From Marsupella aquatica (taxonomy: Eukaryota; Plantae; Marchantiophyta), in contig OZ316892.1 in the NCBI GenBank assembly GCA_973895155.1, positions 15,802,861-15,866,860 of the forward strand: a stretch of DNA of 64,000 nt, given 5' to 3'. Shown piece after piece: positions 9,279 through 34,659 of the stretch (position 1 is the first letter of the stretch; each line of letters starts with the position of its first letter). Below the pieces are notes generated by a model that saw only the letters and a program-made list of their open reading frames with translations, was not told the DNA's origin and made no database searches. Position numbers and translations under genes: made by a program.

Positions 9279-11939
9279 CTCCTCTTAGTACCACTTTGGG
9301 CAATATTCTTGTAGTAAACTCTGGTTGTTCTTGAAGCAAAGTCTTTGTTAGAAGCACTCCAGAGCTAGTATACTTAGAGTCCAATGTTCACTTCAGTTCT
9401 TCTTGAGTCTTAGCTTTAGCCTTGCAAGTACTTGGATATGGCAACACACTCCATGGCTCCTCCACACATTTGAGGATTGGCTATGGCTCTTTAGATGCTC
9501 CCGGAACATCATGGTAGGGTGCTGGTTTGCATATGTACTACTCACTCTACATGCTACATACATATTACTCAAGAAGAACTCTCTTGACGGGATTACATCC
9601 GCTGATGTAGCAATATGGTTTTGAGTGATAATTGTAGAGTGAAGCACTGAATGTGAAAGACGTTCATGAATAGAGGGAGGTAGATTTGTATAGGGATAGG
9701 CCGAACACAAACTTGCAAGTCATCATTGGTTCTCAAAACGCCATTTTGAGCACATCTGAGTTCTATTCTGGTCGTAACTCTTTGGTCACTTGACGAGACT
9801 TGGAGCTTTTAGCATGGTTGGAAAGCTCTCATTGAGGCACAAAATATTGATATAAATAACTCCAAAAAAAAAGTTCTATCAAGTGAGATACACTTGCTGA
9901 TATTTTGACTTCACCAAAACACAAGTTCGAGATAATTTTGCAAATAATATGTGTTCATAGAAAGAGGAATGTATATAGAGAGGAGAATGGTATCTTATGT
10001 ATTATTATTAAAATGATAACATGCATGACAATTTTTTATCATTTTATTAATATTAAAAAATTATTAATAAAAAATATTTTGGTGGGATTTTTATTGTACT
10101 AAAAGAAGGGGGTAATCTTGACTAGTATTCATAAAAGAAATAAATTGCAAAACAAAACGTAATTCATCAAGAACTATAATACAAGGTTGTGCCAAAAAAC
10201 GCCTTGGTTGTCATTCAAATTTGGCGGCCCAAAAAAACAGAAACGGCAAAAAGTGAAAGCAATATAGAGGGATAAAAAACCAATCCTCCCTTTTGTCGCT
10301 ACAATCCTGTGTTGCCCCGCACTGAACCCTTGTCGCCTCGGTAAAAGATGGAAGAGGAAAACACCGTCGCGACCACCCTGCACCCACTGTCGCCGTGGCC
10401 CAATTCACTGTGGGCCGACTGCCCCTCCCTGTATGATCGCCGCGGCACAACAGGCACAGCCCTGAGCGGCCGTCCCCCGCCCCGACCAAGAAACTCCATC
10501 GACGGCCTGACTTGCCGCCATCCCCATCTTGACTTGCCATCCCTCAATGGCCATGCCCTCACGCCTCGCCATCCTTTGGCATCCCTTGCTTGCCCTCGCT
10601 CCTCATCGCCATGGCCCTGCCCTTGCGCCTCGCCTGCCCCTGCCTCACTAGAAGAAAACGTCCCCTTTTGAGACCCTATGCTTTGTGACTTTAGGGAGAC
10701 TTTCAAAAATACATGACTCCAAGTTTAGGGGAGTCATTGTTGTTACATTTTATCAACTGATTTTTGGGGGATATTTGTGAAAGTCATTCCTACAACTTCT
10801 GATAAAGTAGCAATTGTAACACTAGTAGGGCAGTCATATGTAAGTTGAATAAGCTACTCTCCATTACGGCATTCTGAAATAGAGTGCAAGAAGGATTACA
10901 TGCACTCTAGACATCACGGAATGTTCCATTTACAACCCTTGACTTGCAACTTGCGGAGTCGGGAGCACTAGGTGCACATAGAAGGAATGGGGGTTTAGGG
11001 TTGCAGAACTAGTTAAATGTCTTCATGTCAAGAGCATTGTAGTTATCCTGGCCTAATTAAACGTGCATGGGAGTACTTGCCTCTATAATAGTAAGTCTTA
11101 TGCTGCTCAATGGATTCCTTAGAGTTCATGGGCAACTTTGACAAGAATATTGGGGTGATATCATTTTCAATTCAGGGCTAAAGTAGTGTCTGGCCCCCAT
11201 TCTTTGTCCACCCTCCCTAAGTGGCATGTGTAAGGGTTAACTTACAGTTGCGTTCTAAGAGGTTACAGTTGCGTTCATTTAATCTTTGCTCACAAAGTGT
11301 CATGTCCAATTTGCTTTAGGGTACTAACATGTGTATCAACGGCTCATGTCAACGCAAAGTGGTCGAGGCTCATTGGGTTTGGTTCACTAAGTGTCACTAA
11401 GTGTTAAGGTATGCTTTGTGCGTGAGTGTGCCTTTGGACACGAGTTTAGGGTGCGCGGGTTTTGTTTAGGGTTTAAACACGCCCGCAGAGTGCAAACTTC
11501 AGTTCAATGTGCGTGGGAACTCGGAGGTTTTTGTTTCAGAAAAACTCACTTGTCCATTACGGGGACATTCGTCATGCCTGAAGGTCGTCACATTGTGCGC
11601 GGTCTCACGAAGTGGGGAGTGTGCTTCGCGATCGGGGCAGTTCCTTCGCGTAGGGGAGTTTTGCGCTTGGAGCTTGAAGGTTTACCTTCAAAGCTCTAGA
11701 GCATTCAAGCTGAGAGGGCAACCGGCTTGCGGAGTGGAGAGGTGAGCTTCAGTGGATGACGAGCTCTAGGACTGGGAGGAGCTGTGGGCGGGCAGGAGCT
11801 GCAATTTGGGAGCTGCTCTGGCCGCCGGTCTGGCCGAGGAGCCACGAGCGGAGAGCAGCTGGAGTGGAGTTCGAGCGGAGTGGAGCTGGAGTGGAGTGCT
11901 TCTGTCACACACTGCTGAGGATTGCTACGTAGCTTCAGT

Positions 11940-12105
11940 TTGGGTGGCGGTGCGAGCAGAGGTGCTGAGAGCGGCTCAGGTGCCAAAGGAGGTGGTGCCA
12001 GCGGAGGTGCGAGCGGAGGTGCTGAGAGCAGCTCAGGTGCCAAAGGAGGTGCTGAGAGCGGAGGTGCGAGCGGATGTGCTAAGAGCGGAGGTGGTAAGAG
12101 AGGTG
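11940..12105. repeat. Degenerate GC-rich tandem repeat (ggaggtgc...gagc units)
   Basis: Repeated ggaggtgctgagagc, ggaggtgcgagc and tcaggtgccaaa units. Confidence 0.7.
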
Positions 12106-13792
12106 CTATTGGATCACTGAGAAGGCTACAACCTCTCTATCTTATTCCTACTATCTGGCGGTTGCAGTTGGAAGGAGGGTCGAGTGGCGAACATTTTGTC
12201 AGTTGAGGACTCAGCTGCGGGTTTGTCATTTCCTGGAGCTCAATCGCTTGCTGCTAAGACTACTGTTGCTGCAAATTTGCAAGCTGCTTGATCATGAGCT
12301 ACCTAGCTCCATTGTGAGTTGCCTCCCTATTCTCCTTGTTCTCCCTGTCTCCCCCTTGCTTGCAGTTACTATCGCCAGGAAGAATGTGTTTGGCCAAGAT
12401 GCTAGATTGCGACTTGTCTTCTTGCTTCTAGCTCGTGTATATGCTGGCATCCGTGGGGGTTCCTCAAGTTTGAGTCTGCAGAGGAAGAGTCTATCATAGT
12501 CTAATTAAATGTGGGCCATATTACTCTGGTCAATGAATGAGTTCCCTGGAAATAGAACCTCTCTGATTATAGAGGTGCGATTTGGTCAGAATTTTTTCCC
12601 CTCTCATTGTATCCATTGATGCCAACTCACTTTCATCACCTCAATTCTGAACAATGAGTGTAGTCTCAGGCTCCATACTGCCTATACTGAATGGTCTAGC
12701 TGCGATGTCCACCTCGGCTGAAGTGAGCTCTGACTTGGAGCCTTAACATTTGTGTTCTGTGGGGCTGATTAGAGTTGGTTCCGTCCAGAAGCTGCTCTAC
12801 TAAAGTGATAGAGCTCCGGCTTGGAGGTGGATCTTCACTTTTTTGTGGGTCTGAGTGACTTCTGTCTAGCTGGGCTTAGCTGAGTCAGTAATACATTCAA
12901 AAGAGGTGAGTATCCCTGACCAACATTTATTTACTCTTGACCACGCCAAACTAATGGCGCTTCAATTTGAACTTTCTAAGTCTGACTGCTGACTCCGCTC
13001 CTTAAAACCTACCTTAATTATATTCATGTCTTTCTTTTGTGCATGCGCATAATGTCTTTCATTCAGTTTAACATTAAATGTGAGACAGGGCTGCATCCAG
13101 CTCTTCTAGATGACAAGAAGGCATTGATCAGTTGCTTTTTGATCTTTCCTCACCAAACAAGAAATCTTTCTTACAAGAAACCTGTCTTACAAGAAATCCA
13201 GCCTGGCCGAGAAGCTGCAAGTGGGGAGGATGTCTGTAGAAATTTGTAAGGAGTGGTTTGTCTCACAATGCCATTGTTGATGAAACCTTGCTTCTTCTTA
13301 ATCCAATGCTTGCTGCCTTGTTACAACGTTTGTCTAGTTGACCGCTTCAGTGCCTATTCTTCATTTCCTGTTGTTCCATTTTTGGAAATTTATGCTTAAG
13401 GAACCTGCATTTCCTTCCCTGTCCCCATGCTATCTCCACTGCACCTTCCACTGCTAGCTATGTTGATTCCTTCCACTGCTAGCTCTAGACAATGATGCAG
13501 TCCAAATGCTGATCAGTCTCACTAGGGGTGCGGGTGCAGACACAACTCGCACTGTGTGATTGTAGTTTTGCTTTGTCGAAACGAATGTGTTTGGCTAAGA
13601 TGCTAGATTGTGGCTTATCTTCTTGCTTCCATCTCGTGTATATTCAATTAGTAGAAGCTGGGAACGAAGTGAAAATTGAATTTCCTTATATTAAGCATCC
13701 TGACCTAGAAACTCAATACATAAACTCCTGGAGTCCCTCGGGACATAAAATGAGCCAAATTGTTTCAAAATTGGGAACCTACACCGCACTAC

Positions 13793-14132
13793 TCAAACAA
13801 ATGTGTTGGGCTTGGTGGCCTTGTAAGTCGTCTTTAGCTTTCGCGATGGAGGTTGAATGTTGCGGTACGTCAAGGGGAACTTGATCTTTGAATCATGGAA
13901 CTGCTTGGTACTTTCTCGCTTGCACAGAGAGACAGGGACTGTCGTAGTCTTGATGATCTGGATGCAAGGGAACCGAACTCTATGACAAGAAGCCATCTCA
14001 TCATACATCTGCTGTGTGGTTGTTTAATGTGGTATCACGATATTTCTTGTACATGTTGGGATAACCTATACGACTCTGATACCTCACCCAGATACCGAAG
14101 TTCTTAATTGTGGTGGGCTTCTTTTCGAAGAT
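13793..14132 (-). pseudogene. RPL18A: Captured last exon of 60S ribosomal protein L18a (eL20) inside the CACTA
   Basis: After acceptor ctaccag|: [37 protein letters not shown], a frameshift, then [46 protein letters not shown]...[15 protein letters not shown], matching the plant L18a C-terminal half. Confidence 0.92.
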
Positions 14133-15141
14133 CTGGTAGACACATTATTCAGCATTTGCTAACTTCGAAACTAGAAGGGTAACACATTAAACAATAGAGA
14201 AACTCACAACATCCTCCTTTGGTCCTTCAGAGTCTATACTTTGATTATGAAGTTTGACTGAGTTTCTGTTTACTGAAAGAATGTGACTGTGTAAGAGTTT
14301 CGTTTGGCAGTGGATTGGTTGAAGCACTTCATGCTAGTGTGTTGTCCACAGCTCTTCAACCAGCTTTCATCTTCCTTGTCTTTCACCACTTACGATGACA
14401 TCAATTCAGCTAAGACCATAGAAGGTTCCAAAGCATCTAACTTGTAAAATCGCATTCTGTTACATCAAGGACTAAGGTGTTGGGTGCCAAAGGAGACAGC
14501 ACAACAAACACCCTGAAAAGACTTCAGGACTGGGTTCAACAAGGTAGTGAAGGTGCTTAGAGCCATAGTAAGTATGCATTCTGTATCTTTCTCTGTTGAT
14601 GTGAGCTTGTGCATAATGGGAGTTGTAGTTGGCAAGAGTTCCAAATATGAATAGATCCAGAAGTATGTGATCATGTACTTGCTCTATAAAGTTCTGAAGA
14701 TATAAGCATTTTCTGTTAGACCAGGCAACTTGGGAGTTGGTAAGTGTCACCTGCATCTGAGGGGCTACACCGGGGGCATCAGTGGAGGTTCACTTGCACA
14801 ACACGACAACCAGTGAATTTTCTCTCTGCTGCAACCTGCAAGGTGAGACTTTTGGTCTTTCTGGATGAAAAAACAGGATTTTAATACGATTGATATACAT
14901 GTTCGTCGAGAATATGGGTTTATCACCAAGCTCTTTGTCTTAGGAAACTCATAAACTCAGAATCAAATATGTACTATGCACGTTTCATGCTATGTGTATA
15001 CTATGACCTGTAGTTGGAACCAAGACAATGAGTGGGAACTGATTAGTTTAGGTGGTTGTTGTTGGCGAGGCAAGTCGACCTCCTGCTCACCTTGCTCATC
15101 AAAGGACGTGAACAGAGGACATCACAACGAAAGCAACACTT

Positions 15142-15591
15142 ATGGTGAGGACCCGCAACGCTGAACATGTGCGACTTGCACGCAAGGCAGAGATGTTGCG
15201 CCTTGAGTATGTCAGACTTGGGATCCTTCCAGCCCAGTCTGCATGGTACTTTGAGTACCCTGTTGTTTCCAGGAACAACTACAGCCGGCCTCTACCTGCT
15301 TCAGTACCCTTCCCGACATCCTTGGTATTTGTGTCTCTTGTACATGACCCGCCACAAATTAGGTGCCAAGGGTGTGTACATAGTTGCCAATATGACTATC
15401 CTGCCTGTAGGGCTTCTGGCCCAGAATTGGATGACCGTTCTCTTGGATGCCGATTTTTGCACAGAGCACAATGTATCATCTGGAACCACTCGCCATCCTG
15501 CAGTGTGCCTGGTGATGTCACTTGTCCTGCCCTCCCAAACCCCACCACTGGTGACTTTGGTGTCTACACATGCTTGGATCACATGCTCTAG
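15142..15591 (+). CDS. Cys/His-rich ORF of unknown function in the CACTA
   Basis: 149 codons from an ATG (MVRTRNAE...) with clustered Cys/His (CQGCVHSC...C...CRFLHRAQC). Same strand as the transposase. No family recognised. Confidence 0.35.
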   Translation: MVRTRNAEHVRLARKAEMLRLEYVRLGILPAQSAWYFEYPVVSRNNYSRPLPASVPFPTSLVFVSLVHDPPQIRCQGCVHSCQYDYPACRASGPELDDRSLGCRFLHRAQCIIWNHSPSCSVPGDVTCPALPNPTTGDFGVYTCLDHML

Positions 15592-16206
15592 AGGACCACT
15601 TGTCACACCGCATGCACAGACCAGATACCATTGACCTATAGCTTAACACTCTCACTTCAACACAGAGGATATTTACTTAAAATTTTGATGTATGAGCAAT
15701 TTTGGGTCCAGGGTTTAGGGTCAACAGTACATAACTTATCCTATTATGCCTGCACTAAGCAAAATATCCTAATTTAAGAGGCTAGCAAACTCGCATAAAA
15801 GTCTCTATTGAAAGACTGCTTTCATGACTGCTTTAACCTGGTGAACATTGCAACGTTCAATGAATTAATGGGCCATGTGATAACCTGTAAAATGTGATTT
15901 ATGCATCACTTATTTGTCTCAGCCACTATCATAGCCTATTTAGGATGTATAAATTTCAACCCTTATGACACTGCTTCATACCAATCCTCTTCGAAGAATG
16001 CCTGTTTTACATGTCACGACTATTGTATGTGATTCAAATGCATGAAATGTTGTTGCAGATCTCCTTTGGTGAATCATAGCCACAATTAAAATTGAGGTGT
16101 TGGTGGAGCAATTGTATTAGGGGATCAGGTTTGTGTGTGGGCTCAACATACCAAAAGTATGTCTGCTCTGCATCCTTGTGTGGCCATTCCAATTCATTGC
16201 AGTAGC

Positions 16207-16350
16207 AAATGCCTTTGTACCTTAAATGCTAAATATATTTTACTTTCTGTGCAGTCTGCTAAATTGTAGAGTCTATCTAAATGCCTTTGTACCTTAAATG
16301 CTAAATATATATTACTTTCTGTGCAGTCTGCTAAACTGTAGAGTCTATCT
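16207..16350. repeat. 72-bp tandem duplication upstream of the PHD ORF
   Basis: aaatgcctttgtacc...gagtctatct occurs twice (16207-16278, 16279-16350) and contains a tttctgtgcag acceptor-like motif. Confidence 0.9.
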
Positions 16351-16361
16351 CATGCGCAGGC

Positions 16362-17042
16362 ATGGCACGACCTAAAATTCAAGCCAAAAAGCGTGTGACA
16401 GAGGTGAGAAACACAGGTGTACTTGGGGCAGATGCTACTAACTTCTCTGCAAGTCAGATTTTCCAGAAGGCAGCTCATTGTTGTGCCATTTGTGACGATG
16501 GTGGGGGCCTGGTCATTTGTGAGGGCCCTTGCATGAGGCATTTCCACCTCAACCCGGAATCTGACCTTGCTGTAGAAAACAACTGTCCAGGGGTGGGCCT
16601 CCCGTCAACACACCAGGGAGACTGGATGTGCACTGATTGTTTGGAGAAGCAGACTAAGTGTGCACAGTGTGGGAAGTTGGGGTCCTATGAGGGCTCTGTT
16701 GATGCTGCAGCAAATGTTAGGAAATGTCCAGACCGTTTTTGTGTGAGATTTTTCTGTTTTGAGTGTTTGCCTGCTCATGCCACAGCTTGCCCACTTCATA
16801 GGTGCAAGGCATGTGATGAGCATGATCATGAGTACTAGACTGACATAGTCCACTATGCTAGGTGTCCCACCATGTGGCACTATCATTGCCTGAAAGATCG
16901 TCAAGCAGAGGGTTATGCTTGTGATAGAGAAATCTATGATCACTCTGCACATGGTGTTGATCGATGGATATTTTATTGTCATCGCCATGCCATTGATCCT
17001 ACCTCGCGCACTCCTGTGAGAGATCACATGTCTTGGCTGTGA
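16362..17042 (+). pseudogene. EDM2-like (NSD-type) PHD-finger cassette, ~226 codons, one internal TAG
   Basis: CAICDDGGGLVICEGPCMRHFH...WMCTDCLEKQTKCAQCGKLGS...VRKC...C...CPLHRCKAC. Past the TAG at 16836 the frame continues RCPTMWHYHCL...WIFYCHRHAIDPTSRTPVRDH, colinear with the PHD region of Arabidopsis EDM2, including its IYC..H.ID....TPVRDH motif. Confidence 0.85.
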
Positions 17043-17634
17043 AGCTGAACATTGTACATGCACAATGCACCTGATGTGGATGTACTATTTTTTGAGATTG
17101 TAGAGATTCCAATTTTGAAAAGGAGTTGGGTAGGCGAGTTTATATAGGCAGCACTTATCTTGTGCTCTGGCGTCAGTGGCTGGGTACATGCCTATAAAAA
17201 CTTATCCTTACAAGCCTTCTTGGAAGTATTTAGGCTGAGTGGTCATTTTCATAAACACTTTCATCAGACTGCTAGATTAAAACAGGACTTCTAAGTTGTA
17301 AGCGTATAAATTATCAGGCATGCAATTAATCAAATTGCCCTATAAGTTTGTCATTGAACGTATCCTCCTTTACAACAAAATATGTATGTGCCATGACAAG
17401 TTGGTTGCACTTCATTTCACCTTCGATATGGATTTTGTAGTATATATTCAAACAATGTCCTGCATCCGTGCAGGTGCCTAGTACGTATTGTTCACATATC
17501 CCTTGTACCTATCAAAATTGGACCTGAGCACCAGTGGGCCAGATCAACTCAAAAAGCAGGAATTTTATTGTCCTTGTATTGTCAGGTGAACCCATTCTTC
17601 CAAAATTCACTGTCATCACGTAGGGTGTGTGTAC

Positions 17635-18507
17635 ATGGAGCCTGGGAAACGTAGAAAGTGTGACCACCCAGCAGTGTTTACAGGGGTCAAAGCCATTTTG
17701 GTCCATGGCCAGCATGGGTTGACCAAAGTGCATTGGCCAACTGTACAGAAACGATTCTCTGAGCTCCATGGCACTGTAGTTCAGGACATCACTCCAGAGA
17801 CTACACATGTTGTTGTAGGGACATGGCTATCAGTGATAAAGAAGTGGTCATGGTCCTACATGAATTCTGCAATTACTAAGCAAGGCCTAAAAGTAGTTGA
17901 GGCCTCTTGGATCACAGATTCCATAGCACATCAGATTGTACAGGATACTGAGCAATATGAGCTGTGGGAGGATGAAGAAGCTACTGCATCAGCTTGGGCT
18001 GAACAAGAAGTCTGGGAAGCAAAGGCACGGCTTGCTGATGTCCAATATGGACCTGTACTCAACAAAGGACAGAGCTCTAGAAGGCTGAAGAGTATGTTGG
18101 CTGAGGAGACGAAGCAACCAACCCCCATTCTGAAAGGGCTGAGCATGGTATTTGTGGAGGCGGGAATTGGAGAGGTTAAGTGCAAAGTGTACAAGTCCAC
18201 GGTGCTTGACCTAGGTGGGACAGTGGAGGAGAATATAACAGAGGACACCACTCATGTCATTACTAAGTCATATCCCAAAGCCTGCCGCAAGTTTGGGAAG
18301 GGAGACATTCGCTTTTATGTCATGTCCCATAATGTGTTTGTGGTTTCATATGCTTGGCTTGTGGAATCAGTAGCAGCTGGGAAGCGTCAAAACCCAATGG
18401 ACTATGATCTTTTTGAGGCCTGGCCACGGAAGGGTCAGGATCCTTACAGAGAGGACTATGAGACAACAAGTGAGGAATGGGTCATTAGCGATTATGAATC
18501 AGAGTGA
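17635..18507 (+). CDS. Tandem-BRCT protein (290 aa)
   Basis: Two BRCT units: VFTGVKAILV...HGTVVQDITPETTHVVV...VVEASWITDSI...EQYEL and ILKGLSMVFV...LGGTVEENITEDTTHVIT...VVSYAWLVESVAAGKRQNPMDYDL. Uninterrupted frame. Resembles the DNA polymerase lambda-type BRCT. Confidence 0.85.
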   Translation: MEPGKRRKCDHPAVFTGVKAILVHGQHGLTKVHWPTVQKRFSELHGTVVQDITPETTHVVVGTWLSVIKKWSWSYMNSAITKQGLKVVEASWITDSIAHQIVQDTEQYELWEDEEATASAWAEQEVWEAKARLADVQYGPVLNKGQSSRRLKSMLAEETKQPTPILKGLSMVFVEAGIGEVKCKVYKSTVLDLGGTVEENITEDTTHVITKSYPKACRKFGKGDIRFYVMSHNVFVVSYAWLVESVAAGKRQNPMDYDLFEAWPRKGQDPYREDYETTSEEWVISDYESE

Positions 18508-18992
18508 GGAGTAGTAGCATCAGTTTGGACACAAGTTTTTTTGTATAAATCAGATCATTGAAATAAATGTGATCTTTGAACTAATGTACCTTGTTATGGT
18601 TAGTGGCAGTTGAGCTTATTTTACTGTTGGCGGATTGTTGTTTCCTGCTGCCTGGGGGTGTCACTATAAACGTACATGCCTCTGGTACATTTGAGGACAG
18701 CGGAGGAGGTGGTGACACCCTCCAACATTTAGGAATTTTGTGTCATTCACTTGACAATAGGTACACTACTTGCGAACCTGTTTTTTTCTTTTGGGGTGGT
18801 TTAGGGTTTGTGAGAATTTAGTACACGTTATGTTAACTCTTTTGGCAGATACAGTCAGGGATATATGGAACACAAATACCACCATTAGGCATCCTTGTTC
18901 ACTGCTGTCCATGACTGTAGAGCTCCCAGCCTGTTACAATGCACCCTGGTCACCACCCTCCCCAGACCCAGCCCAGGGCATAGGCACTGCCT

Positions 18993-21900
18993 TTGCATCA
19001 TCCCACAAGGATATCACGCCATGATAATAAGCTTTGGCAGCGTGAAAGGTTACGAACCAGACTTTCAGGAGCCAGTAGGATGAGATGTCCTTGTGCAATC
19101 TGCCAAGGATTCCATACCAAGGGTCTGAATGAGGTTTGGCGGCATATCGCGGTTCATGGAAGAGATCCACGACATCGAGTTTGGAATGATCTTGTAGAGG
19201 AAGATTCTTCCGACGAGGAGTGGAGGTTAGAATTTGATGCTGCCAATGCTGCAAGACGGGCAAGTGAGGTTCTGCCTGGTGCATTTGAAAATGTTGTAGT
19301 TGGTCTCTATGGGTTGTCAGCTCTCCAACGGGATGGTGCTCAGGCAGCACCACGTGACAAAGGAATTCATGTGGAAGAGATGGTGAGAGACATCTTCCAA
19401 GACTTGGATGCATTTCATGATGGGCTGGACAACGAAGAGGATACGGCTGCAGATGCAAGTGTGCCCCCTGTCGAAGAGCCTCTTGATGAGTTTGAGATAG
19501 GGCAGGAAACCCCTGGGCATGATGGGATGTTTGGCTCTCCCCTACAAATACAGGAAGGCAGGAAGTCTTTGTACCCCGGTAGCAAATGTTCTAAACTGGG
19601 ATTTGTCATCATGTTCCTGAACATTTGCGGCAACCACAATGTCCCCAACGTTTTGGTTTCTGAGTTGTTGGCATTCTTGCGAACAACTGTGCTACCAGAT
19701 GGTAATATTTTGCCCAAGAACATGTACGAGGCAAAAAGATGCATATCTAATCTTGGATTGAACTATGATTTGATCCATGCCTGTCCTGATGGGCATGTTC
19801 TTTTCAGAAAGGAGTATAAAGAATCGTTGGCATGCCCTAAGTGTGGGAAGCACAGGTATCGGAACTCAGGAAAGTCTATGGTTCTCGCCAAGGTACTTCA
19901 TCATTTTCCACTCATTCCCAGACTTCAGCGGATGTTCAGAAGCCGTGCCATCTCGGAGATGATGACTTGGGCAACTGACAAGAAAAGTGATGATGGGCTA
20001 CAATGACATGCTGCAGATTCAAGGCAATGGAAACTCATAGATGAGATGTATCCCGAATTTGCTGCTGAGCTGAGGAATGTCAGACTTGGGCTGTCATTGG
20101 ATGGGGTAAACCCATTTGGAGACAAGAACAACAAATTTCCGTGCTGGCCTGTAACTATTTTGAATTATAACCTTCCTCCTTGGATGACTACAAAGCAATT
20201 TTTTGTCTAGATGGTCCTACTGATACCAGGGCCAGACAGTGCTGTATCTGCCAACATAGATGTGTTTCTGGCTCCCCTAGTGGAGGAATTGAGAAAGCTT
20301 TGGGAGGAAGGAGTCCTCACATATGATGTCCTACAGAGGCTTGGGAGGTTAAACCCATTCATCCTTAGAGCCATTGTCATTCTGACTATAGCTGACTACC
20401 CAGCCCATGGGATGATATCAGGCCAAACAACAAAAGGATATTGTGCTTGTACTATCTGTGGGCGCAATGTCACCAGTGAGTACTCCAGAGCCCTTCAGAA
20501 AGTGATATACATGGGCCATCGTCGTTTTCTGAAGGCAGATCACCCTTACAGAGAAAGACAGGCACTAATTTCACACTTTGGCAATGAGATTGAGCAACGT
20601 GGACCCCCGGCACGAGTGACCAAAGAGGAGATCAGGCAGTGGGGAGCACTGAGGGATGACTATATCAAACGAGGGGGCAGGGAAGATGGAGTGAGTGATC
20701 CAATAAAGCGATATGGTGTAAAAAGACTGAGCATATTGGACTTGAAGCTCAAGTACTGGAGGGTAAGCCTCTTGGAGTTGATGCTAATTGGGATACATGT
20801 TTTGGTTCAGAGCATGTGCATTCATTTCGAAGAGAGAGACTAAACCTGAGGCATTTCCTGACGCTTTTGCATTGCAACGATGCAGGAGTTTGAGCCAAGC
20901 AAACATAACATTGATGTTATGCACATTGAAAAGAATATTTGTGAGAGTCTACTCAGATTCTTGTGTGGAGAGAAAGACACTGGTTCAGTGAGATTGGATC
21001 TTGAACAAAGGGGAATGAAACCCCATCTTTGGTTGAGGCCACATGCCCACAGAGCTGATGTGCTCTTGAAGTACCAAGCGCCCTATGTTCTGACAGACAC
21101 AGAGTGGGAACTATTTGTGTAGAGGTTGAGTTCTTTGAAGGTTCCTTCAAACTATGGCAGTGCTTTCAAGAAGCATATCATGACTAGAAAACTTGGTAGT
21201 ATGAAAAGCCATGACTACCATATGTTGATGCAACAAGTGTTGCCTTTATGCCTGAGGGGCCTGTTGCAGAAGCTTGTTCGTACTGTGATCATGCGACTCA
21301 GTGATGTGTTTCGTCGTATTTGTGTGAAGGTTTGGGATGAAACACACTTCCCACAACTGACAGAAGATGTCGCTCAGGTGCTGTGTGACCTGGAGATTTA
21401 TTTTCCTCCCGCATTTTTTGATGTCATGACCCACCTACTTGTCCATGTTGTGGAAGAGCTACACCAATTTGGGCCTGTGAGTGCTTGTTGGTTGTACCCT
21501 TTGGAACGGTACATGAAGCTACTCAAAGGTCACGTGAGAACATATTACAAACCTGAAGCAAGCATGGCTAAAGGTTACATCAAGGATGAGACTCTGGGAT
21601 TTCTGACCGAATACATAGCACAATATGAGCATGTGAAGACCAGGGTGTGGAATTCTGATGAGGAGGAAGGGGTGATAGGTGAAGTACTGGAAGGGGCTGC
21701 AACCACAAAGAACCTGACCATATCTATGAGAGACTTGGCACATGACTTTGTATTGCACAACACTGTGGTGATGGAACCCTGGATACAGTGAGTGCATACA
21801 TGTGCTATAATCCAGTTCATGAGCTTAAATGTTGTGTTCGTGTGGTTTTCTCCTTCAGCCTGTTCATGTTTACCCAAGCTAATGTTGTGTGGTTGTTCGT

Positions 21901-22669
21901 TCAGGGAGTATGAGTCATTGAAGGCGGCCCATCCCACTGCAGGAACAACTTTTCCAGGTTTCATGGAGTGGATCAGAGTGGCAATTAGAGAGCATCACGA
22001 GACCCACCCAAACATGGATGCAGATGTTTACCTACTGTCTAATGCCCCTAGCCTGAAAGTGAAGACTTACAAACGGATGAGAGCATATGGGAATCACTTT
22101 CGAGTGAAGGATGGTGACAGTGCTACAGGGTGACGAATGACTGTGGGCTCATCACTGTATTTGAGCAACAGAGCCACAATCACGACAGGGCCTGGATGGA
22201 GATGAGATATGTGGGAGAATTAGTTGACATATGGGCTCTGGACTATGGGGCGGTGTCCAGTCCTGTGATTCTTATGAAAGGTTCATGGGTGCAGCAGGAT
22301 TGGCTTGGTAACAGGGCTACCATGAAGAGAGACAACGACGGTTTCTTGCTGGCCAATTTTAGAGGGAAATTGCCCGAATGGTTTGAGCCATTTGTGTTTC
22401 CTAGTCAGGTGGAGCAAGCTTTCTTCTTGGATGTGGAAGACTCCCCAGGTTGGCGTGTAGTGTGTCATAAACAGGCCAGGCAACGTCGGATGGAAGGATC
22501 AAACCTTGAGTTTCATTTACACTCTCATAGTGCCTTTGATCGTCGGCGTTCATACCAAGTGCCTATAGTTCATGATAGCGGGGACTTCATTCCTGTGACA
22601 AGGGTAGATGCATTTGCTGAAGGAGGCGAATTCAGAGATGCAGATGCCAACAGTGTGCCTGTGCCATGA
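18993..22669 (+). pseudogene. CACTA TnpD/Tnp2 transposase
   Basis: Transposase-associated RCPCAIC...HIAVHG; IHACPDGHVLF; PLIPRLQRMF; RNVRLGLSLDGVNPF; DYPAHG; DVMHIEKN; MKSHDYH; FFDVMTHLLVH; EPFVFPSQVEQAFF. Introns 20763-20885 and 21788-21904. Stops at 20004, 20208, 21120 and a break at ~22131. Confidence 0.95.
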
Positions 22670-22825
22670 GTAATGTGAATTGTTTGCATGGACATTAGTG
22701 AGGGGAAGGATGTGTAATAAAGTAATTCTGAAGCAACACAGATGTATGGATGGATGCCTGGTGATTGTGGTTGCATTGTGTTATACGGGGTGACCATAGA
22801 TGACATGTTTTTGTGGTCCAGTAGG

Positions 22826-25823
22826 ATGGAACAGAGTGACACAGAGATGTGTGAGTATGAAAGGAAAGCTATGGAACAACGAGCATACGTGAAAGCCAAA
22901 ATCGCAGAACTGGATCTGGAAAAGGATGTGGCTGAATTGTAAGGGAATGATTCTCAACTACACCCCTCCGCTGAGTTTGTGTGACATGAATAGTTCAATG
23001 TGGCACTGAAATTGTGACTGTATTCTCATATTGGATTCAGACAACATGAAATTCTGTCCACCTGCCATTGCATGCAGATTCTGCCCAACCTGATTGGGCA
23101 AATGCTAGTAATGATCAGTTCCAATGTCCACAAGGACAGACATGGGTTGAACCAGGTTGGGAGGATGGTGGTGGGTCGTGGAATGAACAAGGTTGGGAAG
23201 GTGGTGAAGGTAATTGGCAGGGATATCAAAATACAGTACCTACAAACGCTGGAAGAGGGGCAGGTAATGTCTGATCTTGTCAGCAATGGAAGAACTCATT
23301 ATATCTGGAGTCCATTCACGTGGGGGGGATTCTGCACATGTATAATGATAGAAAATGTATGTGTGCAGGTTGGATAGTCGAACTATCGACTCAAGTATTC
23401 ACTAATGCCCCTATGCAGATGCAGCACGGAAGGGGGACAGGTATGTCGGTGAATGTTCAGTTGTTTTCCTATAGTTTGTACTTAGTTTTCAGTACATATG
23501 TTTGCACACACATACCTAGAAAGTGACATCATCCGGCCCCTGTACTAGGCTGGACAGGTGGTCCAGGGTCGCAACAATTTCAGAGTGCAGTCCCTGCACA
23601 GGCATCTATAGGCAGAGCTACAGGTATGTATGTTTGAAGAATTTTTCTTGAAGTGAAGCATTGAATGTTGCCGTCATCCATTCTGCTATATGTAGTTCTC
23701 AAGCATGAATGGCATTGTATTTTCCCAGGTGGCTTCAGAACCCCAGGTAGGGTGAATGAAGGGGTGGCCAATACAACGCCCAGTACTACCGAGAGCAGTG
23801 CACGAGGGGAGGTGACAAAGAAAGGGAACGTAAAGTTGAATGAGAGACAATGGGTGGATGCTGAGTGTCCTCGCAAGAACCGATGGCATGCTAATTTGAA
23901 AGCTGAAGTATTGCGTTGGTTAGATGTGAGTGTTATTAATTAAAAAAAACAGCATCCAAAAGATTGGAAGACTGTATGTGAAAATGTTGCTGCCAAATGG
24001 AATTATGTGGGCAGTGATGATGGCGTGGACATAGGTTGCCTAGAGAGTACAGCAGGTAAAATCATCAAGCAAGAGAGGTGGAGAATGCATAAGGCTTGGA
24101 AGGAAGGTGGGGAGAAGCCAGATATACCTCCACCAGCCAGTTGTGATGATAAAGTGTGGGCAAGGTTAGTAGCTTATTTTGTAACAGATGCTTCAAAAAA
24201 GAAGAGTTCACAGATGACCGAGGCTAGGTTGAGTGTTCAGAACCCTAATCTGACAGGAAGGACCGGCACTGCACCGACAGCTAAACGTTTGGTAAGAATG
24301 AATGGCCTAGCTATGTAATTTATGCTACACTATGTATTGTTTTTTAGTGTAAACCCATACATGTAAACTTTGTTTTTTAGTGTACGTTCCCTGAATATTG
24401 ATCGATAACTTGTGTTTGCCATGCATGTGCAGAAAGCCCAATTGGGGCAAAGCCCTTCAAAAGAAGAGTTGAGGGCTGAAATTGTGAACACCCGGGCTCA
24501 AGAGGGTGCATCTGAATCCTCCAAGCATGTAAGTTATATGAGTTCTGATTGGTAATTGAATGACCTGCGTTGAATTTCAGGTGTACACTGTATATAACAT
24601 TGATTGTGCATATATTGCCCAACATTTCATATGGAGTGATTGAACCTATACCCCTGTGTCATGTAGGGAGGTGGATCTTCACTTACAGAGATAAGTGGTC
24701 GTTTGAAGGCTATCGAAACATGTCTTCCAGAGCTCAATGAACGTTTGAATTCATTGACTGACTTGTTCCATGTGAACTTCAAGACATTAATGGAAGCTGT
24801 TGTGTCGGTGAGAGATAAAATTGATTCCAATTCTGCAGGAGTTCCACCATCACCACTTGAGGTGGCAAAGTCGATGCACTCTTCTGGCATGCCAACGACA
24901 TGTAGGCTTGAAGGTAAGGCCTTTACAACTGTGTGGGATATGATTATTAAATGTATAGTTTGAATTGACATTGTTTGTTGAATGTGTTATTTTCAGTAAC
25001 ATATATTGTGGTTGTTGTGTCCATAGAGAATAAGACAGGTGCTACAGAGACGAAGTATGAGAACCTGGCAAATACTCGTTGTAATTTAGAGGCAACAAAG
25101 TTGCAGTCTGTACAAGCAACTTGTTTGACAGAGGGCAGTCAACCATGTTTGGATGAGGATGACATTGGCAAGGGAGTGGATGATATCAATGTTGGGGCAA
25201 ATGAGGATATCAGCAAGCATGACAATGATACCATTGAGCCAGATTCATGCTATGTAGATCTTGACTCCATTGCAAAGATAAATGATTTGCAAAATGTATC
25301 ATTCTCAATGACAGGTGTGCCTCTTGTTGAGATAAATCCAACCAAAGAGTTAGTTGGTATGACACTCCTAGGTGATGAACCTACTACTGTGATAGTCCTA
25401 ACAGAGGAACCTACTGAGCCTAGCTTCACTACTGTGAAGAGAGGAAGAATGCGCACACGAAGCAAGTCTGCTGGTGGGAGCAGAGCCACGTCAAAGGTTT
25501 CATACAAACCTCCAAGAACGGTGCTGGCAGAAAGATCTAAGGTGGAAGTGGGGAAAGCACCTAATGCTGAGGGACAAAGTGGCTTGTTAGCTCTTGATGA
25601 GAGTGGAACACGAGTAGGATTTGGCAGAGTGCAGGTTGGTTCCACAACGTTCCATGGCAAGAGGATTCCCCCAGGTTATTCAGTAGTGTTAGTCACATTA
25701 CTAGTGAAACCTAAAGCTGTCCTTCCCATTCCAAACACAAATGATGATCCTCCTCAAAAGACACTTGGAGATACTGCAGGTTCTTTGGTATTATGGCCAA
25801 GCAAGTTCATAGAGGATCCATAA
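22826..25823 (+). pseudogene. CACTA TnpA/ORF2-like multi-exon gene
   Basis: Several short GT-AG exons. PPPASCDDKVWARLVAYF...KKKSSQMTEAR...NLTGRTG (Ptta/En-Spm-like), then C-terminal FHGKRIPPGYSVVLV...LPIP...TLGDTAGSLVLWP (Tnp1-like). In-frame TAA at 23941. Confidence 0.8.
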
Positions 25824-26379
25824 CAATGTCATGCCATTATTTGTTTGTAGTGTGAGTCATGTTATGTAGATTTTAGATGTCAAGAAGCAGTACAAGAATC
25901 ATGTCCTCTTGGAAATTCATAGTATCATGCATGTGCTTTTTGTATCTCATCCTGCAGTCATCAATTATGAGTTCCTGTTTTGTCTGAATTACATTGATCA
26001 CATTGTAAACTATTCCATTGGAATTCAAATGATCTTCATTTTTTAGCAAGATTGTGATTGTGTTTAATTCTTATGAATGTTTTATGTAGGATCTGCTTAT
26101 ATGATGCTTTGTTTCATGTGGATGTCATTCATGCTATGTTCATTTCTTGTATTCAATGTGTTATATTTCTAAAGTTAGAACATCAGGTTTCTATGTATTG
26201 TAATGTCGAGTGCTCTCTCTCCTTATGAACTGTCCCTCTGTGTTCATTAGTCATGGTTATAACTTGCATGTGAACCTTATTAGTTATAAACATGAGTATA
26301 TAGAGTCCCAAATGGTTCTGTTGTGTGACGCGGGCCAAGGTCTCCATTGGTCTCTCCTGTGACACTAAATGGTCACACG

Positions 26380-26660
26380 CTAGTCGTTGTTGAATGCGGG
26401 TAAGTCATGTATGTGACTTACGATGTGACTCGCTGAAGTCATATTGCAGTCACGTCGAAACAAGGCTAGACTCCACAATAAAGTCACAGATCAGTCACAA
26501 ATGGGTATCAAGCAAGTTGCAAAGCCCAGTATCAATAGTGACTTCCATTTTTTGGTCTCAACTTTTGCAACTCCAAGGGTCACAGCGTGGGTCAAGTCAC
26601 GTTGAGTCACAATGAAGTCACATGAGCCAAAATGAGTCACATATTGCGGTCTCAGTTCAC
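26380..26660. repeat. CACTA 3' subterminal repeats
   Basis: Many AGTCAC(A)/GTGACT motifs in both orientations; similar motifs at ~10680-10790. Confidence 0.75.
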
Positions 26661-26680
26661 CTCGGATTCTTCTAGTGCCT

Positions 26681-27330
26681 CTTCACCACGGCCTCGCCTG
26701 CCACTGCCTCGCCTGCCATGGCCTCGCCTGCCACGGCCTCGCCTGCCACGCGCCTGCCACGGCCTCGCCTGCCATGGCCTCCTCCTCCTCCCCTGCCCCG
26801 TGCCTGCCCTCCCCTCCCCTCCCCTCCCCGCCCCTCCTCCTCCCCTCCCCTTGCCTCAACTAGTGAGGGCTGCAGCGGCCCTGCCCTCCTCGTCTCGCCC
26901 CTCAACGTCGCGATCCCCTCCTCCCTCTTGCGGTCATGACCCCCTCCTCCCTCTCTCCCTCCTGCCGTCCCGACAGCCCCGTACCTGGACCAGCCTGACA
27001 GCCCCGGCCCAACAGCCCCGATGCCTCCCCACCTCCCGCCCCGCGCCTTTGACCAGCGAGGGCCGCGGCGGCCATGCCCTCCCCGCCCCGCCCCTCTTGC
27101 CCAGACGCCAGCCTCCCCTCTCGGCCTCCCCTCTCACTCACCCGACCTTGCCTCCCCTCCCCCTCACGACCTTGCCCTTGCCGCAACCTCGAACCCCCCT
27201 CCCCCTCATCACGACCTTGCCTCCCCTCCTCCTCGCCGCAACCTTCCCTCCCCCTCACCCAACCTTTCCTCCCCTCCCCCTCACCATGACCTCGCCCTTG
27301 CCACGACGGCCGACTCCCAAGACTCCTGGA
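26681..27330. repeat. GC/pyrimidine-rich low-complexity tract with 15-bp ggcctcgcctgccac repeats
   Basis: About five tandem 15-mers followed by ccctcccc arrays. Continues the tract at 10560-10645. Confidence 0.8.
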
Positions 27331-27819
27331 ACAAACCTCTACTCTGCCATTGCCTCTTGATGCCCAACTTGCCTTGGCCTGCAGTCGCCGAGGACAACTC
27401 CGATCCCAACTCAGGCCTGGGCTGCTGACAACAACTCCATGCCCGACTCAGACCTGGGCTCAGCCTTGCATTGCCCTTGCCTGGACCCAATAGATCCCTT
27501 GGATATTGAAACTTGAGACATGAGACTCAAGAGTGTAGGCCCCAACATGTGCTCTAACTCACCTACTTGCCCCAGGATCAAACTCCGAGGCAAGCACTCG
27601 GTTGCCGTTATGTGTTGCCACTATGTTTTGCACTGAAAGATGCATGGGTTGGGGGCCAAAAATATCAGGACCAAACGTGGTCCGGGGGTGGCAGGTCCCC
27701 ATAAGCATATATGAGGGGACCACCTCCTCTCAAGCATCCAAGTTGGAAGGTGATACAAACCACACCACCACCCCAAGGGGGAATGGCATTGGCATGTAAC
27801 GAGCCGAGTAAACATGGAC

Positions 27820-28965
27820 GAGGTCACCAATGGGATTCCATGCAAGGGGTAGGAAATTTGTGCCGCTAAAAAGTCGGCCAACCCGTGCCGTTGCCCCAAG
27901 GGGTCTTGACATTGGGGCGGCCAAAAGCCAAATAAGCGGTCACAACGACTTTAAGTGAAATGCTTAAAGTAACCAAAAATCTGGGGTTACCAATGGGGTT
28001 GGGGGATGCAAGGAGTAGGTAAAAGGCCCATTGAAAAGTTGGCCAAGCCGTGCTGTTTCCCCAAGGGGTCTCGCCATTGGGTCTGCCAAAGCCAAGTAAG
28101 CGGCCACTGCAACTTTAAGTTAAACGCTTAAAGTGACGAAAACTTTGGGGTTACCAATGGGGTTGCGGGATGCAAGGGGTAGGAAAAAGTCCCGTTGAAA
28201 AGTCAGCCAAGCCGTGCTATTGCCCCAAGGGGTGTCGGCACTGGGGTGGCCAAAGCCAAGTAAGCGATTGTGCGACTTTAAGTTAAATGCTTACTAGATT
28301 GCTACCAGAAACTAGATTGCTCCGTGTAAAAGAGCTCCTTAATCAAGAACGGGTTGCCTGGATACATAGCCGCAATGTTTGGATTACTTTTGTTTGATGT
28401 CGATTATGTTGAGTAGGTCCTCTTCTGGTTGAGTGTGTTGGATGCTATGTCCTCTTTGATTAGGCTATACCTAGGAGAGGTCACTTAGGGCGGACTAGCT
28501 GGGATTCTCAGTTTGCTTTGGCGCTGCTTTTGTTCTGCCCCCTCATTGGTATGGTGCCAGTGGTGGCTGTGTTTGGTTTGATTGTTTTCCCCCCAACCAT
28601 GGGGTTTTCGTGGCCTTTATGTTATTAATGAAAAACAATTTCAAGGAAGTTAAACGCTTTAAAAAGTGACAAAAACTTTGGGGTTACCAAAGGGGTTGCG
28701 GGATGCAAGGGGTAGGAAAAAGGCCCATTGAAAAGTTGGCTAAGCCGTGCCGTTGCCCAAAGGGGTCTCGGCATTGGGGCGTCCAAAGCCAAGTAAGCTT
28801 CCGCTGCGACTTTCAATTAACTTTAAGTCACCAAAACTTTGGGGTTACCAATGGGGCTGGTTCTTGATGCAAGCAGTGGCAAAATGTTTAGTTGAAAAGT
28901 TGGCCAAGCCGTGTCATTGCCCCAAGGGGTCTCGGCATAGGGGTAGCCAAAGCCAAGTAAGCAAA
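27820..28965. repeat. ~164-bp tandem array (about 5 units) in the Helitron 5' region
   Basis: ggggttaccaatggggttg...gatgcaagg...aaaagttggccaagccgtg...ccaagggg...aaagccaagtaagc recurs at ~27822, 27983, 28147, 28680 and 28841. Confidence 0.9.
28293..28646 (+). mobile_element. 354-bp insertion, probably a 5'-truncated non-LTR retroelement
   Basis: Interrupts one tandem unit. Flanked by a 13-bp duplication aagttaaa(t/c)gctt (28280-28292, 28647-28659). A-rich end ttattaatgaaaaac. Confidence 0.65.
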
Positions 28966-29306
28966 CATGGGTTAATTTAAGGGCAAGAGGCACAAATCCT
29001 GGAAGCAGGAGGAACGTTGCCAAGGTTAGGTGGGTGTGTGGGATGAGGGGGCCCTTATAGGATGTATCCTTGACGGATATTGGGCTCCTTGAACTAATAT
29101 CCCATGTCTCTTGCGATGGTGTCCTCCAACCGACGTTCAACCTACTTAGGGTTTGTCAAGCTTGGAACGGGGCATGTAAATTTGAATGACTCATTTAAAT
29201 TTGAATGACTAACAATATATGTGCGTTGGATGCAGACAACGGACTATGGGTGAGAGCATGGAGTAATTAATTAGGGCTTTCTTATGACGAGGGTACCATT
29301 GCCAAC

Positions 29307-32300
29307 ATGCCTCCTCCCGACCAGGTATTGGCGGCTTGCCGTGAGAGGTACGCCAAAAACAAAGATGCCATTAATGAAAGGCGGAGAGAGAGGCAAGCGC
29401 AGCGTTGGCAACAACAAAATGGGGTGGTTGGAAATAATGGAGGGGCTATGGGGGCTCCAACGGATGGGGTTCGGGCAAAAGCAAGCGCTCAACCAAACTT
29501 GGTTGCGCACATGAACAATGGGAGACAGCTTTGTCGTGAGGCTCGGGGCCAAGGGCAAGCATTGGAAAGACCCCATGACATTCCAATATTAGTGTTGGTG
29601 ATCCAAGCACATCAATCTGCCAACCCATGGTTCCCTGTGACCCACATGTATTTGATGAAGGATGGCTGATTCAAGGTGCTTTGGATGAAAGTGGGATTCA
29701 CCATCGTCCATTGGAGTTAGCCGCCAACACGTCCTATGAGGCAGCATCACATGTTCAGCCGGAACCTTGCCTCTATGATGAGGAGTGGTTTATCAATGGG
29801 GCGTTGGATGATGGGGGGATCGATTGTCCTCCGGAGGAATCAATGCACGCTCACACTCAAACTCATTTGTTTAATGAGAAGTGGCTCATCAATGGGGCAA
29901 TGGATGGCGGGTTTGATCAACATGTGGATGGGGGAATTATATGATGCTGAGGAAGATTATGTCAACAATGGGGATGGTGAATTTGACACTTATGTCAAGG
30001 GGACCTTGGAGTTGTCAAGTGGAGAAAGGGAACCGGATGTAGTGCCCAATGTTACATCTGAAGTCCAGGAGAGTTTGGCAGTTGCACCAATCACACCTGC
30101 GTTGCGGAGCAAAGAAGAAATAGCACGATGAAGATGGAGGGCACAACTAATCAATCATCTTCCAAAGGCGCGAAGGCCATTGGATCCTCACTTGGCCCAA
30201 CATTGCTTGGGGCCTATGGACGTGGTTTGCCGCACATGTGGGGCACTTTATTGGCTTGAGGAGTGCAAAAAGGGCACCAAAAACAATCCCCTTTTTAGTG
30301 CCTGTTGTGCGGACGGCAAGGTGAAATTACCTCCTTTTGGTGCCTCACCTGAGCCTCTGTGAAGCTTGCTTACAAGGCAAGACAATGTTGGGAAGAATTT
30401 CTACGACAACATAAGAGGTTATAACAATGCCTTGGCGTTTACCTCCATTGGTGCAAAAGTGGATGAGCGCAATAATAGTCGAGGACCTTATTCCTTTTGT
30501 ATCCAAGGAGCATTGTACCATCTTGCGGGGAGCCTTTTGCCCCCTACAGGAGAAGGACCCAAATTCGCGCAATTGTACATTTATGACACCGCCAATGAAG
30601 TGGGGAATAGGTACATTCCCCAATCCCATGACCATTTGCTCTTCCATCTTGCTTAGGTACATTTTCATATATATCTCCAACCTGAGTGGTTCTAATTGCT
30701 TTTCTTGCAGGCTCAACCAGATGCCACACTTGGATCCAAGGATACTGGCTCAACTGCAAGACATGTTGCACAAACATAATGGATATGTTCATCTATTTAA
30801 GAATGCAGGAAGTCAGATCGAGGGGGGCAATGTGCCAGAGGTATCTTTACGCCTCCTGGCCGAGAGCGATAGTGATCCAAGACGTTATAACAAGCCCATG
30901 GGCGATGAGATCGGCGTTGTCATGGTGGGTGACGAAGATATAGAGGTATGCCATAGGGACATCATCCTTAGGCAAATAGATGGGCATTTGCGCAGGATCT
31001 CTGAGTGGCATAGGTCTTATGCACCACTCCACTATGTTCTTCTTTTCCCGTGAGGCCAAGACAGATGGTCATATGATATCCCATTGACGGGTTTTGAAAT
31101 GAGTGATGGGGTTCTTCATCAAGCTGTTACCAGGGCAAGGAGTGGACATAACGGGTCCAAGAAGGTCACCCAACTGCAATACTTTGCGTACCATCTTCAT
31201 GCACGATGCAATGATGATTGGCTCCTTCGTGGTTGACGGCTCCTCAAGCAGTACATTGTTGATGCCTATGCATGCATTGATCAAACACGCTTGACATATA
31301 TCCGCAATAATCAACAAAAATTGCATCCTGACCTGTATTCAGGTCTTCAAGATGCCGTGCACGAGGGAGATGCACGCGCAAGTGAGTTGGGAAAGACTTT
31401 CATCCTGCCCTCAACTTATGGTGGTAGCGCACGTAGTATGGCCTAGGCGTATCAGGATGCCATGGCTGTCGTACACACATACGGCCCGCCAGATCTCTTC
31501 ATCACATTCACTTGCAATCTAGAATGGCCGGAGATAAAAGTAGAGTGCTTTGAGGTTTGAAGTCCAGCTGACCGGGATGAGATTGTGGCACGATGCTTCA
31601 AATTGAAGCTAAGGGCATTGTTGGTAGAGGTTTGCCAAGGGGTCTTAGGAAGGCCCATTGCCTCTATGTAAGTCATAGAGTTCCAAAAGCGTGGGTTGCC
31701 CCATGCCCACATGTTGATCATTTTGGCAGAGCAGCACAAGATTTGCACCCTTGACGAGGTGGATGAGTTGGTGTGTGCCGAGATCCCTGATAGAGTAAAA
31801 TATTGTCGACTTCATGAGACAATAACCAAGTGCATGGTCCATGGTCCATGTGGCATAGGTTATCCGAACTCGCCCTGCACGGAAGATGGGAAGTGCACTA
31901 AGCGTTGTCCTTACGAATTCTCCTCAAAGACACAATTTGGGGATGGAGGCTATCCTTTGTATCGGAGGCAAGACAATGGCCAGTCATTCAACAAGGACAA
32001 TACTGGATTTAGGTTTGACAATAGATGGGTTGTTCCCTACAGCCCATACTTGAGCATGAAATACAATGCTCACATTAATGTGGAGATTTGTGTTTCCATT
32101 AAGGCAATTAAGTACTTATACAAGTATGTATATAAGGGGCATGATCAGGCAACGGTGGAAGTTGGAGAGTTGTGGGATGAAACCAAAACACATTTTGATG
32201 CACGCTACATGTCTGCGGCGGAAGGGACGTGGAGGATTTTCCAATTTAAAATGGCAAAGAGTAGTACTTCTGTCCAGCGTCTCCAAGTGCATTGTGAACG

Positions 32301-34475: not shown

Positions 34476-34659
34476 ATCAATAAAAACCTCATCATGTGTA
34501 TTCTCTTCAAAATATTTTATCAAGTGTGAATGTTATTCTTTCACTTTTGTTCTTAACATCTTTTACTTCATAACGTCTTTGACTAATGACATATTTTACT
34601 TATCAACCATATTGTACTTACAACATCGTTAAACTTAACCAAATTTTGTTCTCAACATC

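Follow-up and report, generated by a model that had tools for sequence, protein, structure and literature searches.

Here we describe a transposable element (TE) from Marsupella aquatica that lies at 10646-26677 of a 64,000-nt window (the whole stretch of DNA analysed, to which all coordinates refer). The element is 16,032 bp long, belongs to the CACTA superfamily and, ahead of its transposase genes, contains three accessory open reading frames (ORFs), the second of which encodes the PHD cassette typical of the plant protein EDM2 and no other part of that protein. The coding units all lie on the plus strand, in the order ORF1, PHD ORF, BRCT ORF, TnpD and TnpA, between terminal inverted repeats (TIRs) and a target site duplication (TSD), as follows.

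10643-10645, unstranded: left TSD, CCT (from the sequence).
10646-10656, plus strand: left TIR, CACTAGAAGAA (from the sequence).
10657-15141, plus strand: 5' arm, with no recognised ORF; a promoter and spliced leader are predicted here.
15142-15591, plus strand: ORF1, 149 amino acids, Cys/His-rich (homologues).
16362-17042, plus strand: PHD-only ORF, 226 codons, a complete EDM2/NSD-type PHD cassette (homologues, Pfam).
17635-18507, plus strand: double BRCT ORF, 290 amino acids, open (Pfam BRCT in two stretches, E 1.2e-13).
19080-22669, plus strand: TnpD transposase, with predicted introns at 20763-20885 and 21788-21904 and an uncertain start codon.
22826-25823, plus strand: TnpA-like gene, with at least six predicted introns and a predicted first exon.
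26325-26641, unstranded: dense 3' subterminal cluster of AGTCAC/GTGACT (motif count).
26667-26677, minus strand: right TIR, CACTAGAAGAA (from the sequence).
26678-26680, unstranded: right TSD, CCT (from the sequence).

The two TIRs match perfectly for 11 nt and differ past base 11, and with the CCT duplication they agree with the perfect ends proposed in a first-pass annotation of this DNA, as do the ATGs (15142, 16362 and 17635) of the three compact same-strand ORFs it had placed before the transposase. Its description of these ORFs as intronless holds for open frames and colinear homologous ORFs, a basis that excludes RNA. A degenerate CCTCGCCTGCC-type repeat (family D5) is present on either flank, which indicates that the element interrupts one older sequence and is an insertion. 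Eight predicted introns assemble the transposase pieces into two genes, TnpD and TnpA; the former matches the Pfam families Transposase_21 (E 3.4e-36), DUF4218 (E 5.1e-27) and DUF4216, and the latter Transposase_24 at E 5.6e-05, weaker than the curated Pfam cut-off. In TnpD the motifs D, D, E, C(2)C and H(3-4)H were located at 20094, 20388, 20442, 21429 and 21495, and we take their residues to have the customary roles in the window protein. Subterminal AGTCA/GTGAC motifs are few in the 5' arm (10685-10945), and the 3' subterminal region includes a period-20 array (26594-26642). A D, D, E triad together with C(2)C and H(3-4)H motifs is the signature of CACTA transposases (PMC12730594; papers given by PMC number are cited throughout for those parts of them that were available). 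Its TIRs, 3-bp TSD, TnpD, TnpA-like gene and subterminal repeats identify 10646-26677 as a member of the CACTA (En/Spm) superfamily. The 5' arm also contains a telobox (11467), purine-rich tandem repeats (11845-12100), strong donor-like sites near 12907 and 14843, and a 61-bp direct repeat (90%; 12382-12442 and 13583-13643) that ends in an acceptor-like site. A 72-bp tandem duplication (97%; 16207-16350), itself containing acceptor-like sites, lies directly upstream of the PHD start. Rfam had no match across 10000-27500 of the window.

The 226 codons of the PHD ORF are obtained by reading past an internal TAG (16836-16838) to the TGA at 17040-17042; protein homologues have Trp at the position of the TAG, and one Cys has also changed to Tyr. 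The first-pass annotation had recognized an EDM2-like PHD protein, correctly as regards the whole cassette, but had overlooked the internal stop and hence its real length. Three homologues were found among 124 candidates (80, 73 and 50% identity), all 220-245 amino acids long and consisting of the PHD cassette only. A full-length, intron-free EDM2-type open frame in a metagenome record (L001:325-4212) served as host reference, and its long protein is 31% identical to the PHD protein over residues 41-225 (E 4e-21). In a profile search of 1.84 billion representatives, which gave 337 matches at E 0.001, short PHD-only proteins head the list, with long proteins of hosts (liverworts, a fern, a lycophyte and angiosperms) coming after them. 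Several members of the PHD-only family appear truncated or frameshifted, as expected for copies of a mobile element. The window protein reaches a best identity of only 33% (range 27-33%) to any of 108 long host-type matches, a set drawn from outside the plant's own genome, and of the 26 Cys/His columns that host proteins conserve, 25 persist in at least six of the seven full compact members. Furthermore, in two quick trees the PHD-only proteins do not group with host EDM2 orthologues. The first placed the compact proteins (9 of 134 rows) on one side of a branch with a Shimodaira-Hasegawa-like approximate likelihood ratio (SH-aLRT) of 86, after 20 of 154 rows had been dropped for short cover or a span above 330 residues; the second, of 46 hand-picked rows in which the 'nsd' label comes from Pfam scores and not from names, did so for 10 rows with SH-aLRT 97. 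The genomic ORF has neither the RFD-like N-terminus nor the methyltransferase-like ELP domain, splicing to other exons being possible. Low host identity and a separate branch, yet with almost all host-conserved Cys/His columns kept, argue that the PHD ORF, so far as these comparisons reach, is an anciently captured and trimmed EDM2-type cassette and not an EDM2 orthologue. Five liverwort proteins of ~620-770 amino acids that end in the EDM2 PHD cassette (P0014, P0017, P0021, P0049 and P0055) form a well-supported group of their own.

The window PHD protein and many of its relatives start with a basic motif (16362-16391) that is in register with R2, K4, A7 and K9 of histone H3, the H3 N-terminal motif used for the register being the one we take as standard. 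In 10 of 17 members the motif beats shuffles of the same N-terminus (p <0.05), and a pattern derived from it occurs in 8 of the 17 as compared with 0 of 121 long host proteins. The motif may instead be a localisation signal, and the part of PMC11738798 that was available contains nothing on transposon histone mimics.

The other two accessory proteins are less readily assigned. Two homologues of the BRCT protein were found among 1023 candidates (61% and 55% identity over 97-99% of the length). BRCA1-type phosphopeptide pockets are formed by Ser/Thr-Gly and Lys in the first BRCT repeat, and a weak alignment to BRCA1 places no Ser or Lys at the phosphate-pocket positions of the window protein. 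By analogy with what is known of the family, it is likely to be a repair scaffold. A candidate likeness of the second BRCT to that of DNA polymerase lambda found no support: no Pol X chain is among the PDB matches, and the Atlas matches are generic and below 0.9. For ORF1, two homologues among 15 candidates (55% and 54%) have in common with it the MVRTR start and the Cys/His pattern, the sole Pfam match is to crystallin (0.08, in one of four members), and searches gave no PDB sequence match and no usable Atlas match. Structure prediction, a check proposed in the first-pass annotation, was informative only in part: the ORF1 model, with a predicted local distance difference test score (pLDDT) of 55, has no Foldseek match at E 0.001 and a best VIA Z of 3.9, which is no proof of a new fold, and the BRCT model (pLDDT 35) was unusable and set aside. 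From its sequence we regard ORF1 as a putative zinc-finger-like protein of a new family.

Depth was taken, for runs X1 and X4, as summed contig depth relative to bin 26776-27392 of the unique flank, a measure that gives no copy number. On this scale the stretch from ORF1 to the 3' end, spacers included, stands at ~340-1,900 times the unique flank: 1902 (X1) and 1801 (X4) for ORF1, 823 and 418 for the first spacer, 1601 and 808 for PHD, 719 and 340 for the second spacer, 431 and 520 for BRCT, 633 and 537 for TnpD, and 683 in both runs for TnpA. Such depth excludes a single-copy capture, and by summed depth the accessory cassette is a family-wide trait of a high-copy CACTA. The first 3 kb of the 5' arm (10.7-13.8 kb) reach just 4-9% of TnpD depth, which indicates that 5' arms differ between subfamilies; these may have exchanged promoter arms or altered them quickly. 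Relative to TnpD, BRCT stands at 0.68 (X1) and 0.97 (X4), PHD at 2.5 and 1.5, and ORF1 at 3.0 and 3.4. These ratios bear on the possibility that ORF1 and PHD together form an accessory module that moves among transposon families in the manner of fungal TET/JBP, a reading that we judge distinctly unlikely, although it is compatible with a function for the ORFs. Besides the excess of 1.5-3.4 times in the ORF1 and PHD bins, it could draw on the deep divergence of the PHD-only family, the TET/JBP precedent (PMC12730594) and run X7, with a bin depth of 2188 for PHD as against 104 and 6 for BRCT and 14 for ORF1. However, the X7 PHD depth resembles that of the TnpD bins (361-2116), a result to be expected from a related CACTA family, and the excess may reflect diverged CACTA subfamilies or deletion derivatives. 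We also rejected the use of runs X5 and X7 as independent species with the family, their low, even depth being possibly a trace of the same organism.

The window copy itself is dead and non-autonomous, its transposase genes and PHD ORF being broken: in addition to the PHD stop, three stops (20004, 20208 and 21120) and a frameshift near 22122 disrupt TnpD, and a stop at 23941 the TnpA-like gene. The first-pass annotation had overlooked that the copy is non-functional. In contigs of four runs, other copies have neither the frameshift nor the stops at 20004 (TnpD) and 23941 (TnpA). The 36 differences with the best support within the element, a selected subset apart from more than 1,200 others, include 28 at which this copy has T or A and other copies have C or G; 16 of these 28 C-to-T-type differences are in CHG context, compared with 18% expected. 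CHG methylation is the class tied to H3K9me2, and the bias fits decay under CHG methylation.

Each of the accessory ORFs has full-length, stop-free homologues elsewhere (unnamed Logan proteins) at 50-80% identity. When sequences were mutated randomly and neutrally to the homologue identities and the frames left open were counted, BRCT remained open in 0-2 of 2000 trials, PHD in 11 of 2000 at 50% identity and 118 of 2000 at 73%, and ORF1 in 105 of 3000. Viral contigs gave no PHD or BRCT match, prokaryote genomes gave none, and a metagenome search for homologue loci returned just the long EDM2-type transcript L001 and an unrelated match (L002). Under passive Pack-CACTA capture, the ORFs would be functionless host fragments. 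Such capture is documented (PMC13317346) and the PHD ORF is indeed broken here, but so is the transposase of the same copy, and the identity of at most 33% to the 108 long host-type matches, the intron-free full cassettes with conserved ligands, the frames open at 50-61% identity and the high depth make this explanation very improbable; a recent passive capture was rejected. The first-pass annotation had argued for element-encoded genes over passive fragments, and this view is borne out by multicopy depth and by conserved stop-free homologues. What it named as contrary signs did not appear: the ORFs are not confined to the window copy (as judged in two runs from summed contig depth, not copy number), neutral evolution is not seen (from protein conservation and the stop-codon simulation, not the dN/dS ratio of substitution rates), and near-identity to host gene exons is absent for PHD across the 108 long matches. 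We conclude that the accessory ORFs are very probably functional genes encoded by the element.

How the five units might be expressed is a more evenly balanced question. The AG sites that the first-pass annotation described before PHD, BRCT and TnpD all exist, but AG before an ATG is common, and we rejected it on its own as evidence. Using a splice matrix built from the element's eight predicted introns and a null of 144 non-coding ATGs, the PHD acceptor (score 5.0) is the only start to reach the top 5% of the null; the best acceptors elsewhere score 3.7 (BRCT), 3.2 (ORF1) and 2.9-3.5 (TnpD), values reached by 15-33% of the null. At three of the five starts (PHD, TnpD and predicted TnpA) the ATG has a YAG|G no more than 1 nt away, as compared with 1.4-1.8% of ATGs, and an identical 11-mer occurs at the TnpD start (19072-19082) and the predicted TnpA start (22818-22828) and nowhere else in the 64 kb. 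AATAAA follows both BRCT (18562) and TnpD (22716). The AG|G at starts, the shared 11-mer, the AATAAA signals and the donors in the 5' arm weakly favour a single leader spliced to alternative terminal units, to which we give an even chance. Separate genes, each under a promoter of its own, ending at its own poly(A) site and sharing no leader, are nearly as likely, at a little below even odds for this step alone. Spacers of 430-770 nt with TATA-like words and a telobox at 18802 would suit them, and in four EN/SPM families of Arabidopsis TnpD and TnpA are distinct genes arranged head to tail (PMC13547354); on the other side stand the AG|G abutting the ATG at three of five starts and the strong donor-like sites in a 4.5-kb 5' arm that has no ORF.

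At poly(A) sites associated with TEs, EDM2 binds chromatin marked by H3K9me2 and suppresses proximal polyadenylation (PMC7529245). Five serial units in CHG-methylated chromatin would gain from control over poly(A) sites, and on this ground a reader or decoy is, in our view, the likely role of the PHD-only protein. Our preferred reading, which we hold at slightly less than an even chance, is that the window contains a decayed copy of a high-copy CACTA whose PHD-only protein serves as a reader or decoy of EDM2-type recognition, keeping the element expressible in heterochromatin; a role of this protein in chromatin counter-silencing or read-through we regard as possible to the same degree. In outline, at some remote time an ancestor would have acquired the PHD cassette of EDM2, retaining nothing but its histone-binding part. 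A leader in the 5' arm would be joined to each of the five ORFs as an alternative 3' unit, so that transcription could reach TnpD and TnpA only by passing upstream poly(A) sites in methylated chromatin, a step that EDM2 controls in the host. The PHD protein would occupy or compete for EDM2 marks and partners, perhaps helped by its H3-like tail, the double BRCT protein would scaffold repair proteins at excision or insertion breaks, and ORF1 may be a metal-binding partner. In its boldest form, in which the transposon has turned EDM2 into an H3-mimicking PHD-only factor that switches splice and poly(A) choice in a five-gene unit, so that transposase is made from silenced chromatin and BRCT recruits repair, we consider the proposal improbable.

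The principal rival holds that the accessory proteins guide integration, with PHD as a tether between the transpososome and marked chromatin and BRCT as one to sites of repair, so that insertions would fall on repeat-rich safe ground. Reader-guided integration targeting is known in retrotransposons, the PHD protein retains just the reader part of EDM2, and in the window, which is dense in TEs, this copy interrupts a degenerate repeat and has a Helitron downstream. One site, however, says little, and selection gathers old copies in repeat-rich DNA; we think integration guidance rather unlikely.

Several points weigh against a reader or decoy encoded by a conserved, jointly expressed cassette. 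The PHD Pfam scores are under the curated cut-offs, both trees are quick searches without bootstrap or a formal clade test, and where AIRE and many host proteins have acidic residues just ahead of the first PHD cysteine the compact family has Ala/His, which suggests that the mark preference of PHD-only proteins may differ from that of EDM2. The H3-like motif is missing from the intact members P0005 and P0006 and was defined post hoc among related members. The homologue search favours open frames, the simulation judges frames singly and not their share among copies, and the diverged homologues are known as proteins alone, without the DNA context (gene order, CACTA residence). No specific donor of the BRCT was found (best PDB E about 0.001). 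Short contigs cannot tie the accessory ORFs to TnpD inside one copy, and ORF1 and PHD, at 1.5-3.4 times TnpD depth, occur also in other contexts or families. With regard to expression, most acceptor sites are ordinary by matrix score, the AG|G test was post hoc, and the telobox before TnpD fits separate promoters.

The view that canonical CACTAs encode only TnpA and TnpD, taken as known in the first-pass annotation, is overstated: fungal EnSpm elements carry TET/JBP (PMC12730594), and some EN/SPM elements of Arabidopsis have TnpD and TnpA as two separate genes (PMC13547354). Plant CACTAs can contain additional coding sequences according to a review (PMC9033089). With plant En/Spm elements the window element has in common CACTA TIRs, a 3-bp TSD, subterminal repeats and co-oriented TnpD and TnpA; it differs in its 16-kb length and in three extra conserved ORFs upstream of TnpD. 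The VANDAL/VANC anti-silencing system of Mutator-like elements likewise couples a DNA transposon to a distinct accessory gene that probably came from a host regulator of chromatin, VANC being probably derived from MAIN-like regulators (PMC13547354; PMC10398659). VANC, however, belongs to another superfamily and is described as sequence-specific, binding non-coding regions, whereas the window element appears to have a histone-reader cassette instead. The fungal EnSpm, Plavaka and KDZ elements with TET/JBP are likewise CACTA-clade transposons with an epigenetic gene and a proposed escape from silencing (PMC12730594); theirs is a methylcytosine enzyme in fungi, and here we have candidate non-enzymatic readers and scaffolds in a plant. 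The full PHD cassette to the terminal TPxRDH motif is found in EDM2 and in short EDM2-like host proteins, grasses having short host paralogues, whereas the window protein lacks the RFD-like and methyltransferase-like parts, is 27-33% identical, belongs to a separate clade, has an H3-like basic N-terminus and is multicopy. Two BRCT domains also occur in BRCA1, Rtt107, DNA ligase IV and TopBP1, in contrast to which the window protein is stand-alone and transposon-borne, with a long linker. In Pack-CACTA, too, CACTA ends enclose host-derived coding sequence, but the window element has its own TnpD and TnpA, and its cargo is whole, old and conserved. We found no CACTA with PHD and BRCT genes in the literature searched, outside which subscription papers, Repbase and supplements largely lie, such that an earlier annotation may exist. 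The rise of DNA transposons to hundreds of copies under methylation has been explained for few systems (VANC, TnpA and TET/JBP), and a captured histone reader with a BRCT scaffold provides small, expressible candidates for a strategy that would work via histone marks or RNA processing and not via DNA sequence. In addition, structural and binding studies could use the PHD-only ORF as a natural minimal form of the EDM2 PHD module, and ORF1 represents a putative new protein family.

The remainder of the window is rich in other mobile sequences. Judged from genes and TEs, the host would be a land plant and probably not an angiosperm. Right after the CACTA element, 27800-34500 contains a Helitron, PIF1 helicase pieces and 164-bp repeats, and the CACTA may sit in the 5' region of this Helitron. 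A retrotransposon gag (2-2050, minus strand), a fragment like the reverse transcriptase of long interspersed nuclear elements (44071-44553) and Copia-like pol fragments (58405-60033) lie elsewhere, as does an array of a 37/74-bp unit (47281-47945). Host-like coding pieces occur at 38125-38799 and 52963-55835, and comprise a SURP module as well as GST-like and TatC-like ORFs placed close together on one strand.

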